DNA from: Shigella phage Sf24
Direction: 5' to 3' (one strand)
Sequence record: MF327008
Length of the DNA stretch: 64,000 bases
Shown here: positions 33,982 to 39,420 of the stretch, piece by piece
Numbering within the stretch: the first letter of the stretch is position 1
Layout: every line of letters begins with the position of its first letter
Program-made: the position numbers and the translations under genes
The notes under the pieces: model-generated
Seen by the model: only the letters and a program-made list of their open reading frames with translations
What the model was told of the DNA's origin: nothing
Databases searched by the model: none

Positions 33982-34198
33982 ATTGTTTTTCCGTTAATAC
34001 AGTAATATCATAGTAACAATCGGAAGAAGTTTTAACTGTGGAAATTTTATTATCAAAATACTCACGAGTCATTTTATGAGTATAGTATTTTTTACCATAA
34101 ATGGTAATAGGCTGTTCTGGTCCTGGAACTTCTAACTCGCTTGGGTTAGGAAGTGTAAAAAGAACAACGCCAGAAGTATCTTTAAATCGTAAAATCAT
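33935..34198 (-). CDS. hypothetical protein, 87 aa (nrdA.2)
   Basis: ORF coupled to td. Confidence 0.5.
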
Positions 34199-35055
34199 AT
34201 TGCCATTTTCCCTTTAATTACTGGATGCGATTCATAATTTTCAAGGATAAAATCTTTCGGTTTCATGTATTCAGTTAACCAGTAAAGCTGTGTTTCGGTG
34301 TCACAATTTCCAAACTCTATAGGCCAATCAATTTTAAGTTCACATAGTTCTTTAGGCTCACGACGTAAAATTTCTTTACATTGTGCAGTATGATTCATAT
34401 AGATGTGAGTATTACCGCCAGAAAATATCAAATCTCCTGGGATAAGATTACACATCTTAGCCACAATATGCGTCAAGGCAGCGTACGAGGCAATGTTGAA
34501 TGGCAAGCCCAAGAAAACATCTACACTTCTTTGGTACCATTGTAAATCAAGATAACCATTACGCACATTAAACTGATAGAACATATGACAGGGCGGTAAT
34601 GCCATTTGATTGATTTCAGCTGGATTCCATGCTGAAACGATTTGACGTCGATCAGTTGGTAATTTTTTAATACGATCAATAGTTTCAACTAATTGATCCA
34701 CACCACCGAAATCACGCCATTGTTTACCGTATATAGGACCAAGTTCACCACTATGATATCCTAGGTCTTTAGCCTGGTTTTCATAGTTATCGTCCCAAAT
34801 AGTTTTACCTTGAATAAGACTACCATGAGTGCGAAGACGTAAATCATTAACATTGGTAGAACCGGAAATAAACCATAGAAGCTCAGCAATGCATGCATTC
34901 CAGGCGAGCTTTTTAGTTGTTACTGCAGGAAAACCTTTAGTTAAATCCCAGCGTAATTTAGTACCGAACAAAGCAATTGTTCCTGTGCCTGTTCGGTCAT
35001 CGGTTTCATAGCCATTTTCAAAAATGTCTTTAATTAAATCTTGGTATTGTTTCAT
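34195..35055 (-). CDS. td: thymidylate synthase, uninterrupted
   Basis: 286 aa continuous ORF; active-site PPCH motif; no intron. Confidence 0.93.
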
Positions 35056-35099
35056 TTAGTACCTTATATAAATTATAATACACTTTATGAAGCTAATAA

Positions 35100-35459
35100 T
35101 TAATACGGTTTAGCATCAAATTTTCTCTCAATTTCAGGCGTGAAATATAATTCTTTACCGCGTTTGGAAAAGCGACCAATAATATGATAATTATTCTCAT
35201 CAAACGTAATATTACCAATATCCATAGCTTTCAACCAAATATCGATATTTCTATCCAGCTTTATGTCAAAATTCCAATACGGAGAACTATTACCGAAAAT
35301 ACTGCAAGCGGATTCAGTGAAACAACTGCTATAAATCTTGTCTTTAGGAACTACTAATTGATAGACACCTTTAATAAACTGAGGACCCTGCCACTTTGGC
35401 TGTTTCGCGTCTTTTTCTAATAAAATAGGGTAATAATTAAAATTCATATTTTCCGCCAC
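35100..35459 (-). CDS. hypothetical protein, 119 aa, inserted between frd and td
   Basis: Complete ORF filling the frd-td gap; no recognisable domain. Confidence 0.6.
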   Translation of the reverse strand: MAENMNFNYYPILLEKDAKQPKWQGPQFIKGVYQLVVPKDKIYSSCFTESACSIFGNSSPYWNFDIKLDRNIDIWLKAMDIGNITFDENNYHIIGRFSKRGKELYFTPEIERKFDAKPY

Positions 35460-35467
35460 GCGTTATT

Positions 35468-36049
35468 TCATTTATATACTGATTCCGTAAGGGTTGTTAC
35501 TTCATCTATTTTATACCAATGACTTTCAACCATTTCACGTTTGCTTATATCATCAAGAAAACTTGCATCTAATTGAACCGTTGAATTAACACGATGCCTT
35601 TTAACGATGCGAGAAACAACTACTTCATCTGCATAAGGTAATGCAGCATATAACAGAGCGGGTCCGCCAATTACACTAACATTAGAATTCTGGTCAAGAA
35701 TAGTCTCGAATGGAGAACCAGAAATTGATACTTGAATTTCGTCGCCGGAAATGTAATCTATATATTGCTCCCAAGTAATATAGAAATGTGCTAAATCACC
35801 ATCTTTAGTTTCAGGATAATCACGCGCAAGGTCACACACTACAATATGTCTACGACCAGGAAGTAATGTAGGCAATGACTGGAACGTTTTAGCACCCATA
35901 ATCATAATTGTACCTTCAGTACGAGCTTTAAAATTTTGGAGGTCCTTTTTAACTCGTCCCCATGGTAAACCATCACCTAAGCCGAATGCTAATTCATTAA
36001 AGCCTTCGACCGTTTTAGTTGGAGAATAAGCGAATACCAATTTAATCAT
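35468..36049 (-). CDS. frd: dihydrofolate reductase
   Basis: 193 aa, T4 Frd length; position upstream of td. Confidence 0.88.
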
Positions 36050-36294
36050 TACGCAAAACCCCTTTCAATAAACCATTCAGTGGCTTTATTAGCATCAAAG
36101 AATAATTCTTCATATGTCTTTTCTTTGTTTTCAAAGACTGTCACACAAACACGTTGACATTTTCCGCAGTATTCTTCTGACATACTCAAAGCGTCAGAAA
36201 ACATTTCATTAAATTCATTTAAATCAGGATTATGCAATGCGTTAAAAATTGCATAATCAAATTCATCATTCATAAATTCAAATACAAAAATCAT
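36049..36294 (-). CDS. hypothetical protein, 81 aa (frd.x)
   Basis: ORF, ATGA coupling with frd. Confidence 0.55.
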
Positions 36295-36305
36295 ATTATC
36301 TCCTA

Positions 36306-36638
36306 TTAAAAAGGATCAGGAACATATCCACTAGCTTTAATCATTTTAACTAATGTTACCATTCCTTTGTTAACTGCTTGTGAGATTTCATCAAAAACTT
36401 CATCATTAAAAAGTTCTAGCACACCCTTCTGAACTTTTAATTTACAGCCAACAATTTCGTCATCGCCTATAGTAAATTCATTACCACCAATTCCACCGAA
36501 AAACTTAATTACACCAGTTAACTGTCTTCCACGAGAATATGGGTCGTGTGATAAAGTAATATGAGTCACCCCGGGTACAGTTTTAAATTGGCAGCGAATA
36601 TTTACTTGTGAAATTCCAGTTACATGAATGTCAGACAT
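36306..36638 (-). CDS. hypothetical protein, 110 aa (frd.x)
   Basis: ORF. Confidence 0.55.
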   Translation of the reverse strand: MSDIHVTGISQVNIRCQFKTVPGVTHITLSHDPYSRGRQLTGVIKFFGGIGGNEFTIGDDEIVGCKLKVQKGVLELFNDEVFDEISQAVNKGMVTLVKMIKASGYVPDPF

Positions 36639-36648
36639 AATATTTTCC

Positions 36649-37410: not shown

Positions 37411-37454
37411 TACGGTTTCCTCATTTTAATAGGGGCTTGATAGCCCCTTGATAA

Positions 37455-37682
37455 TTATTGTTCAATCAATCCCATGTAAAATTCTGCGTCTTCAGAATCC
37501 ATGCCATCACAATATTCATTAGCCATAAAGCGGGTGAGGTCTTCAAGAGGACCTTCAATAACGATTTGAATACTCCAAAACTTAGAATCTTGCACGCTTG
37601 TGATACTAAGTTCAGGATAACGATTACGAATAATTTCTTCAATATATTCAAAATCAACGATGTCAATATCAACTTTAGCCAT
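37455..37682 (-). CDS. hypothetical acidic protein, 75 aa
   Basis: Start moved to MAKVDIDIV... because the supplied 96-aa ORF runs through the early-promoter motif; GAGGA Shine-Dalgarno. Confidence 0.5.
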
Positions 37683-37725
37683 ATTATTTTCCTCTTTAAT
37701 CATCAGCAGTATTGCCGATAGTTGT

Positions 37726-37755
37726 ATAGTACCACGGAAGAACAAGGATGTAAAC
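37726..37755 (-). promoter_or_regulatory. early promoter with A/T-rich upstream element
   Basis: Minus strand GTTTAC-N14-GTG-G-TACTAT; A/T tract at 37756-37785. Confidence 0.6.
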
Positions 37756-37780
37756 CGTTTTGTGAAAAAAATTTTTGAAA

Positions 37781-37805
37781 TAAAAAGGGGACCTCTAGGG
37801 TCCCC
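37781..37805 (-). terminator. gene 32 terminator
   Basis: GGGGACC-UCUA-GGGUCCCC hairpin followed on the minus strand by UUUUUA. Confidence 0.7.
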
Positions 37806-37827
37806 AATTAATTAGTAATATAATCTA

Positions 37828-38733
37828 TTAAAGGTCATTCAAAAGGTCATCCAGGTCCGTGTCATCAGCACTAGATGAACTACCAGAGCTTGAGCTCATA
37901 AAATCATCTTCAGTTTTTGTATTGAAGTCATCAACATTGAATGCATCCAAATCATCAGCAACTTTATCAGCTTTCTTAGCAGCAGTTGCAGCGGCACCGC
38001 CCATCACAGCAGTTCCCATAACTTGACCGAATTTAGTATTCAGTTCTTCAAACGATTTGAATTTATCTTTAGAAGTCATTTCAGAAAGGTCAACCATTTG
38101 TTCGAACAGTTCTTTCTGGAAAGATTCATCGTCAATGTTTGGAATCGCAGATTGATTCAGGAATTTAGATTCGTCGTAGTTACTAAATCCAGAAACTTGT
38201 TTAACTTTCAGTACAAAGTTAGCACCTTCCCACGGACAAGTTACATCAACCGGAGTTTCACCCATTTCAACATCAACTGCAATCATTGCATTGATTTTAT
38301 CCCAGATTTTCTTACCGAAACGGTATTTAAATACTTTACCTTCATTTTCTGGAGCAGCTGGGTCTTTTACAACAAGAATGTTAGCCCAGTAAGAAGTTTT
38401 ACGTTTAACAAGACCGTATTCTTTATTGTCAGTGTTGTACAAATCATTTTTACTGATATACTGACATACTGGGCAAGAATCGTAATCACCATGGGTAGAT
38501 GAACATGTTTCAATATACCATTTACCATTTTTCTTGAAACCGTGATTTACAAGAATTGCGAATGGTGCTTGTTCATCATTTTTAGACGGAAGAAAACGAA
38601 TTACTGCTTGACCGTTACCCGCATTATCGAGTTTCAGTTTCCACTCGCCTTTATCTTCAGAAGAAAAACCTTTATTGCCATTCAGTTTAGCCATTTGTGC
38701 AGCAAGTTCAGCAGTAGATTTACGTTTAAACAT
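37828..38733 (-). CDS. 32: single-stranded DNA-binding protein gp32
   Basis: 301 aa; acidic C-terminal tail; conserved translational operator upstream; terminator downstream. Confidence 0.93.
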
Positions 38734-38800
38734 TTTATTTCCTTTTTAACTTAATTTAATTAACAGTTGGTGCTATGACACTTTACCTCATAGCTGGCAT
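38734..38800 (-). promoter_or_regulatory. gene 32 autoregulatory translational operator
   Basis: mRNA-sense sequence ...AUGAGGUAAAGUGUCAUAGCACCAACUGUUAAUUAAAUUAAGUUAAAAAGGAAAUAAAAUG matches the remembered T4 operator (pseudoknot plus UUAAA repeats). Confidence 0.7.
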
Positions 38801-39420
38801 AATTTGCAATACTCTGGGTCTTCGAGAGGTATCCAACCTGAGTTGAAATACTTTACCATCGATTTAGCAGTTGTATCAGTTATATTTATATTACCTTTAA
38901 CTCTTCGCCATCCAGGAGTTTTACCGTACAGATTAGAGGATAATAATAACACATAATTCTCATAAGCAATATGAGATAATTTCCAAGACTCTATATTAGC
39001 TCGTGATGTTTTCCAAGGTCTAAAATCGTCACGGTTCATATAATTAGCCAATCTCATATGCTCTCTAACTTCCGGGTCTTTGGCTGGATGAGTTTCACCA
39101 CTCACACCAAATCCACCACCAGCATATACCAGATTAAAATAGTCTGGATTATCTCTGGCATTTACTTCAAGTTGGTATTTTCGTTCTTCTTCAATAACAT
39201 CCAAGTCATCATCAATTTGAATTATTTTAACACTCGGTTTTTGAAGCATTAGCGCATTCAAAAATCTTTTTTGTTTACATGAGCTCCAGTATTCCTTTCC
39301 GGAAGAGTCATATATTATTCCGTTCTCAAATGAGCAATTTAATTTACTACCGATATAGTAGTATGGTGGAGTCTTATTTTTGACACGGTCTTCAAATGTA
39401 AACCAATATACTATATTCAT
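38788..39420 (-). CDS. segG: GIY-YIG homing endonuclease-like protein (SegG-like)
   Basis: 210 aa; N-terminal IVYW...PPYYYIGSK resembles the GIY-(10-11)-YIG motif; lies between genes 59 and 32 where I recall T4 segG. Confidence 0.65.
   Translation of the reverse strand: MNIVYWFTFEDRVKNKTPPYYYIGSKLNCSFENGIIYDSSGKEYWSSCKQKRFLNALMLQKPSVKIIQIDDDLDVIEEERKYQLEVNARDNPDYFNLVYAGGGFGVSGETHPAKDPEVREHMRLANYMNRDDFRPWKTSRANIESWKLSHIAYENYVLLLSSNLYGKTPGWRRVKGNINITDTTAKSMVKYFNSGWIPLEDPEYCKLCQL

Follow-up and report, generated by a model that had tools for sequence, protein, structure and literature searches.

Does a T4-like phage whose td and nrdB genes lack group I introns, and which carries a free-standing homing endonuclease gene beside gene 32, stand both to receive the introns and to pass on the endonuclease? 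The question is raised by Shigella phage Sf24 (sequence record MF327008), analysed here over a stretch of 64,000 nucleotides (nt), referred to as the window, in which every gene from denA to gene 59 lies on the minus strand. An initial annotation of this DNA described intron-less td and nrdB together with a SegG-like open reading frame (ORF), and proposed the genome as a potential recipient for intron homing and a potential donor for SegG-type marker exclusion around gene 32. The whole window is collinear with T4 (NC_000866, ~109.3–168.9 kb), continuing into rIIA, and on this comparison the source genome is an ordinary T4-like phage of the genus Tequatrovirus; its nearest database phages (vB_EcoM_FJ1, IsaacDaniel, JK38 and KMB22) match it at only ~96% over 25 kb. 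We conclude with high confidence that the locus is best explained as a Tequatrovirus segment with an intact SegG homing gene and empty intron, mobE and segE sites. The donor and recipient roles proposed for it are broadly right, yet they amount to ordinary, well-documented T-even biology in a known genus, and nothing in them is unusual or new.

The 210-amino-acid (aa) ORF between genes 32 and 59 is segG, the intact orthologue of T4 SegG (gene 32.1; NP_049855). The two proteins are equal in length and identical at 208/210 residues (E-value 2e-163), and both substitutions, A78E and E206K, recur in other natural copies. Position and orientation are also those of T4, in the order 59 - segG - 32: the gene abuts gene 59, lies 54 nt upstream of gene 32 and has a late-promoter motif embedded in it, but the genome around it is without T4's td and nrdB introns, mobE and segE. 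In T4, segG is a free-standing gene between 32 and 59 whose product is an active GIY-YIG endonuclease directed at gene 32 (PMC2988022 Table 1), and SegG is responsible for the exclusion of T2 gene 32 (PMC2330249). Among 13 segG copies that were compared, the one in IMGVR_UViG_3300045988_128797 (1818–2451) has a frameshift with 20 stops in the T4 frame and is degenerating.

Gene 32 has its middle and late promoters inside segG, an arrangement said to favour retention of segG (PMC2988022), and its operator pseudoknot extends over the segG stop codon (PMC535899). In this phage, segG could be kept chiefly for the gene 32 regulatory signals that it contains, namely the promoters and the translational operator at its 3′ end, with the protein inactive or irrelevant; the TATAAATA motif within the window gene and the frameshift in 1/13 segG-positive relatives (IMG09) would both agree with such a role. 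We consider this very improbable, given that the window ORF is intact and nearly identical to the active T4 enzyme, that all 140 database records with segG hold it at full length and at least 95% identity, and that the family-invariant residues Y5, Y22, G24, Y44, E79 and N96 are all present in the window protein. The linkage of segG to gene 32 described below is, in addition, what active homing predicts.

Assignment of SegG to the GIY-YIG nucleases was less straightforward. The initial annotation had called the ORF GIY-YIG-like and had suggested a profile search against GIY-YIG models as a check, with a failure to match as grounds for refutation. The protein is SegG itself, and the label is supported by predicted fold and by profile–profile comparison, but curated GIY-YIG profiles (Pfam PF01541 and NCBIfam) gave no match to window SegG even at E ≤ 10. 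Since T4 SegG likewise found no match in the same Pfam scan, the search is not a valid test of membership and its failure was set aside; the missed match reflects the profiles and not the window ORF. A precomputed Pfam domain is also absent from all 29 SegG homologue clusters.

A confident AlphaFold model of SegG from 26 homologues (predicted local distance difference test, pLDDT, 91) is predicted to have the GIY-YIG fold, and Foldseek with this model ranked I-TevI at the top, if weakly (E 1.4). An exhaustive profile search recovered 506 cluster representatives that combine the N-terminal ~105 residues of SegG with varied C-termini. Among a sample of 50 remote relatives of this N-terminal domain, 29 contain NUMOD3 motifs, a characteristic of homing endonucleases, and 3 show a weak SegE_GIY-YIG match. 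Aligned by hhalign, the wider SegG family matched I-TevI/SegD/SegE with a probability of 82.6% (E 9.6e-6, 86 columns), a result reached only after the family was widened, as the narrow SegG alignment had no meaningful match to I-TevI alone. The alignment pairs Y5, Y22, G24 and N96 of SegG with Y6, Y17, G19 and N90 of I-TevI, and places E79 one position off E75. The stretches I3-V4-Y5 and Y22-I23-G24 are kept family-wide, and among 51 diverse relatives the motif D glutamate (E79) is invariant and the motif E asparagine (N96) nearly so.

Besides the silence of the curated profiles, three observations count against this assignment. Searched with phmmer against all PDB sequences, window SegG had no match; the spacer between its two tyrosine motifs is 16 residues long, compared with the canonical 10–11; and a counterpart of the catalytic I-TevI Arg27 (motif B) was not found in SegG, relative to which the R27 segment is an insertion. 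There is no invariant arginine across the wider SegG family, where K26 and Y44 are the nearby conserved candidates. Our reading is that SegG probably represents a divergent GIY-YIG fold, as the structural model suggests and in agreement with the experimental literature. The protein starts with a nuclease domain of the GIY-YIG type (residues 1 to ~105) and continues into a helical C-terminal DNA-binding domain. Relative to the I-TevI catalytic domain (PDB 1LN0), SegG is ~15% identical, with a longer Tyr-Tyr spacer and no Arg27 counterpart. Unlike I-TevI, it has a different C-terminal DNA-binding domain and is not intron-encoded, and it cleaves hundreds of base pairs (bp) from its gene, as opposed to 23–25 bp for I-TevI (PMC2988022). 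The set of 506 representatives, with its predicted GIY-YIG fold, long spacer and lack of a motif-B arginine, has been overlooked by curated profiles and constitutes an annotation gap.

Evidence on whether segG has moved comes from its flanks. The window has the T4 allele throughout segG, the 54-nt leader and gene 32 nt 1–265, after which gene 32 switches to T2/RB14-type single-nucleotide polymorphisms at nt 276, 295, 297 and 322. Linkage was analysed from gene 59 to just past gene 32 in a small sample of 13 segG-positive and 10 segG-negative Tequatrovirus genomes (an IMG/VR scan for gene 32 loci gave 4 close relatives, and GenBank phage records were added individually), and was expressed as the mean allele-frequency difference between the two groups, with 500 permutations and without correction for phylogeny. 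The difference reached 0.81 in the leader, 0.68 in gene 32 nt 1–130 and 0.47 in nt 131–265 (0/500 permutations in each case). It was 0.20 in nt 266–400 (86/500) and 0.12 in both nt 401–650 (360/500) and nt 651–906 (358/500), and gene 59 gave 0.14 (325/500). In these 23 genomes, segG is therefore co-inherited with ~320 bp on the gene 32 side and with nothing measurable on the gene 59 side, a pattern that the window matches exactly. Such one-sided linkage is what would be expected if gene 32 is broken internally and everything between the break and segG is necessarily converted; the asymmetry also matches the distant-cleavage-site model that Liu et al. 2003 reportedly name in their title.

The T4-type tract could also stem from shared ancestry or from ordinary homologous recombination, without any SegG-initiated conversion. 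Tequatrovirus genomes are mosaic throughout, and genes 32 and 59 are 96–99% identical among all relatives, leaving few informative sites. JK38, in which segG sits beside a T2-like 5′ part of gene 32, is an exception to the linkage pattern, and the lack of correction for shared ancestry among the 23 genomes further weighs against a role for homing. We nevertheless find this origin of the tract rather unlikely, because the association is strong and one-sided and ends within ~30 nt at ~265–275, and because gene 59, which abuts segG on the other side, shows none; the asymmetry fits a break in gene 32 and obligatory conversion to the segG insertion. The chances appear about even that the window is a natural fossil of SegG homing, in which ~0.95 kb of T4-type sequence was placed in a genome with an RB14-type td and a T2-like nrdB 5′ end. 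If so, the drop in linkage at nt ~265–275 would mark the SegG break point, and the wild tract would be near the minimum needed to carry the gene.

Within gene 32, nt 227–228 (window 38506–38507) read CA in 13/13 segG-positive and 3/10 segG-negative genomes, and the two groups are indistinguishable around nt 273–300. A determinant of target-site immunity, if there is such immunity, might be located not at the linkage boundary but upstream of it.

Both td (286 aa) and nrdB (392 aa) are uninterrupted and without group I introns. The initial annotation was right on this point, and of the interval to which it assigned the two genes (34195–39420) td lies inside, while nrdB is located ~3 kb outside. 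Aligned with spliced T4 td, the window gene gives an ungapped 861-nt alignment (77% nt identity, 238/286 aa identical), with the position of the 1017-nt T4 td intron, which carries I-TevI, falling between 34507 and 34506. The 598-nt T4 nrdB intron, which carries a defective I-TevIII, corresponds to a position between 30673 and 30672, where the flanks are continuous and the junction is clean. The comparison with T4 thus confirms clean intron-less junctions at both genes. An Rfam scan for remnants of group I introns found none in the window and was discarded. This negative is uninformative because the same scan also left the T4 region with both introns unmatched, and the direct alignments were relied on instead.

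The I-Tev genes are absent as well, as had been proposed. Searches of the whole 64 kb by tblastn with T4 I-TevI, I-TevIII, MobE, SegD and SegE returned no match, SegG and EndoII (denA) being the only T4 homing/EndoII queries matched, and a Pfam scan of window-specific ORFs found no nuclease domain. Aligned to T4, the nrdA-nrdB spacer is without mobE and nrdB.1, and segE is absent from the inh-uvsW spacer. In slur02 (3065–3706) and T6 (1709–2350), the nrdA-nrdB spacer contains a different 213-aa homing endonuclease gene, at the place where T4 has mobE and the window has nothing.

The td allele of the window is 99% identical to those of RB14 and teqsoen and only 77–78% identical to those of T4 and T2. 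A recent intron-containing ancestor was considered for it and is argued against by the exons beside the insertion site, which are RB14-type without a T4-type tract. At codons 241–265 (window 34195–34330), 25 consecutive residues are wholly unlike T4/T2 (VISGLPYKFRYLSTKEQLKYVLKLR on the T4/T2 side), and the allele with this divergent C-terminal part is common to RB14, teqsoen and ~100 other records. Its stop overlaps the start of nrdA.2.

The proposal that the genome could receive introns stands for nrdB and is no more than plausible for td. Over positions −45 to +25, nrdB has only 2 mismatches to the T4 intron-less sequence (−5 and −2, the latter change common to T2). I-TevIII cuts 14–16 bp upstream of the nrdB insertion point, with a site around −16 to +1 (PMC1865063), and MobE nicks T2 nrdB at nt 122–126 (PMC2790892), where the window is T2-like. 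These comparisons make nrdB a reasonable candidate for an intron recipient. The I-TevI homing-site equivalent in td, by comparison, differs from the T4 intron-less site at 11/39 positions (6/39 in T2). The changes are all synonymous, and 5 are concentrated within or immediately downstream of the cleavage motif, CAAAG in the window (34533–34529, −27 to −23) and CAACG in T4. The number of changes, and their inclusion of the central triplet of this motif, speak against an open I-TevI site, whereas the critical C1 and G5 are kept. I-TevI requires C1 and G5 of 5′-CNNNG-3′, and many central triplets make poor substrates (PMC5009752).

A td allele that has drifted beyond the reach of I-TevI, leaving the phage effectively immune to td intron homing, would fit a site changed more than that of T2, a known recipient, with five changes grouped around a motif whose triplet may be one of those that serve I-TevI poorly. 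We consider such immunity unlikely. Apart from the retained C1 and G5, the primary binding region has 6 mismatches, close to the 5 of T2, and the same allele is found with the intron in nature. In the td loci (472–2348 in each) of Yersinia phage fPS-2 and Pu-Krd-SF7, the full 1016-nt td intron with I-TevI sits inside RB14-type exons, and T4-type sequence occurs only next to the intron, as homing predicts. In fPS-2 it reaches ~50 nt on the upstream side and ~70 nt on the downstream side, and in SF7 ~250 nt upstream, with some RB14-type patches, and 5 nt downstream. Because these tracts look like natural co-conversion tracts, the RB14-type td allele has very probably been invaded before. In 236Ecol005PP (td 1934–3048), RB14-type exon 1 is joined to a 254-nt intron without the I-TevI ORF, of which 199/254 nt match the T4 intron ends, and this also argues against immunity. 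Its exon 2 is T2/T4-type, and the case represents a natural ORF-less td intron at a recombination junction. For the window td, recipient status is uncertain from sequence alone, and the natural intron-bearing phages with the same allele make it plausible.

T4 SegG cuts gene 32 of a co-infecting segG-less phage, and repair templated by the segG-carrying genome transfers segG, together with the neighbouring 5′ portion of gene 32, to the broken genome. Such copying, or 'intronless homing', results in local marker exclusion. The cut reportedly falls ~332 bp from the segG insertion site, a figure on which none of our conclusions rests. In the preferred reading, that of an intact homing gene among empty sites, the intact window segG would act like that of T4, although for this allele we infer the enzyme activity from its likeness to T4 SegG, which is a point against the reading. 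The genome is thus a likely SegG donor around gene 32 by orthology, as had been suggested, and the population footprint adds to this. It also appears to be a past product of homing, with its T4-type tract from segG to gene 32 nt ~265. The genes td and nrdB are simply without introns, and the spacers without mobE and segE, as is commoner among relatives. Empty sites are therefore offered to I-TevIII and MobE, whose known substrates the window sequences closely resemble, and probably also to I-TevI, at a site that has drifted with its critical bases kept.

Uneven distribution of introns among the T-even phages has been known since 1987–1989 (references 11 and 12, as cited in PMC2988022). Among ~683 phage-collection records with a td homologue, 464 are contiguous, that is, without a full-length intron; a full td intron is present in 197 records and a full nrdB intron in 118. 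Absence of the td intron is the majority state, and several deposited genomes already pair segG with an intron-less td. FJ1 (MZ170040) shares with the window the intron-less nrdB and td, the small td-frd ORF and segG between genes 32 and 59, but its gene 32 retains more T4-type sites past nt 276. KMB22, IsaacDaniel, JK38, ES19, TadeuszReichstein and UFV-AREG1 also combine segG with an intron-less td, in loci that end within nrdA. None of these seven relatives is identical to the window, and their mosaic boundaries vary in detail. RB14, which shares the td allele, and T2, which shares the nrdB 5′ end, resemble the window in having the extra td-frd ORF, no introns and no mobE; they differ in lacking segG, and their gene 32, 909 nt long, has T2-type 5′ alleles and an inserted GGT.

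Three small ORFs in the td-frd-frd.1 interval had gone unmentioned in the initial annotation, as had the absence of mobE/nrdB.1 and segE and the divergent td allele. Between frd and td lies an ORF of 115 aa (119 aa if begun at an upstream GTG), which matches phrog_1928, of unknown function, and is found in T2, RB14 and FJ1 but not in T4. It lies in a ~400-bp insert flanked by a direct repeat of the frd-stop/td-start junction, with minus-strand copies TAAATGAAACAA at 35047–35058 and TAAATGAAATAA at 35463–35474. In T4, frd and td overlap at the junction sequence, and the RB14 record is annotated 'flanked by 9 bp repeat'. Its homologue in TadeuszReichstein (BASEL collection) is labelled 'putative homing endonuclease', a label that we find unsupported, as neither Pfam nor NCBIfam identified a domain. 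Homologues are few (3 clusters), and the structure model (pLDDT 61.5) was too low in quality for a fold search. The two ORFs between frd and frd.1 (window 36049–36638) encode 81 aa and 110 aa (DUF7247); T4 has neither and T2 only the first.

Table 1. Features of the denA-to-gene 59 region, in window coordinates
Feature	Position	Strand	Remarks
denA (EndoII)	29732–30166	−	
nrdB, intron-less, 392 aa	30170–31348	−	
MobE nick-site equivalent (nrdB nt 122–126)	31223–31227	−	T2-like; from alignment
nrdA-nrdB spacer, 51 nt	31349–31399		mobE and nrdB.1 absent; window 31348–31404 corresponds to T4 139719–140420
nrdA	31400–33664	−	nrdA.1 and nrdA.2 lie between nrdA and td
td, intron-less, RB14-type allele, 286 aa	34195–35055	−	Pfam Thymidylat_synt, E 7e-95
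I-TevI homing-site equivalent (−27 to +12)	34495–34533	−	insertion point between 34507 and 34506
Small ORF, 115 aa	35100–35447	−	between frd and td; not in T4
frd	35468–36049	−	
Two small ORFs	36049–36294, 36306–36638	−	not in T4; followed by frd.1 to frd.3
Gene 32 (single-stranded DNA-binding protein)	37828–38733	−	published SegG target; Pfam gp32, E 1e-66
T4-type tract (segG, 54-nt leader, gene 32 nt 1–265)	38469–39420	−	T4 allele throughout
segG, free-standing homing endonuclease gene, 210 aa	38788–39420	−	T4 SegG orthologue
T4 late-promoter consensus TATAAATA	38883–38890	−	exact match; 3′ part of segG, upstream of gene 32
Gene 59 (helicase loader)	39422–40075	−	upstream neighbour of segG; Pfam T4_Gp59_N and T4_Gp59_C, E 1e-53

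Other parts of the window depart from T4 in gene content. Two full-length Alt-type ADP-ribosyltransferase genes (685 and 698 aa) stand in tandem at 13269–17426, where T4 has a single alt and the fragments alt.-1 and alt.-2, and, relative to T4, pseT and pseT.1 are separated by an additional 106-aa ORF without a family match (26802–27122). The distal tail-fibre genes (47418–52097) are T2-type rather than T4-type, with a gp37 of 1287 aa and a gp38 adhesin of 261 aa (Pfam GP38, E 1e-71). Upstream of rIIB, DUF7418 ORFs of 109 and 96 aa are tandemly duplicated (59903–60497), and T4 167656–167825 matches there twice.

Variable td and nrdB introns and the exclusion of gene 32 markers by SegG have been textbook knowledge since 1987–2003, and alone they carry little weight. 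The additions made here are modest: the missed GIY-YIG match is due to the profiles, and an apparent natural SegG conversion tract ends near gene 32 nt 265. Automatic annotation will overlook SegG-type nuclease domains, which curated GIY-YIG profiles do not cover, and a profile search that fails needs to be checked on a reference protein before it is taken to refute a claim. Natural recombinants among public Tequatrovirus genomes are now numerous enough for homing conversion tracts to be mapped without crosses.

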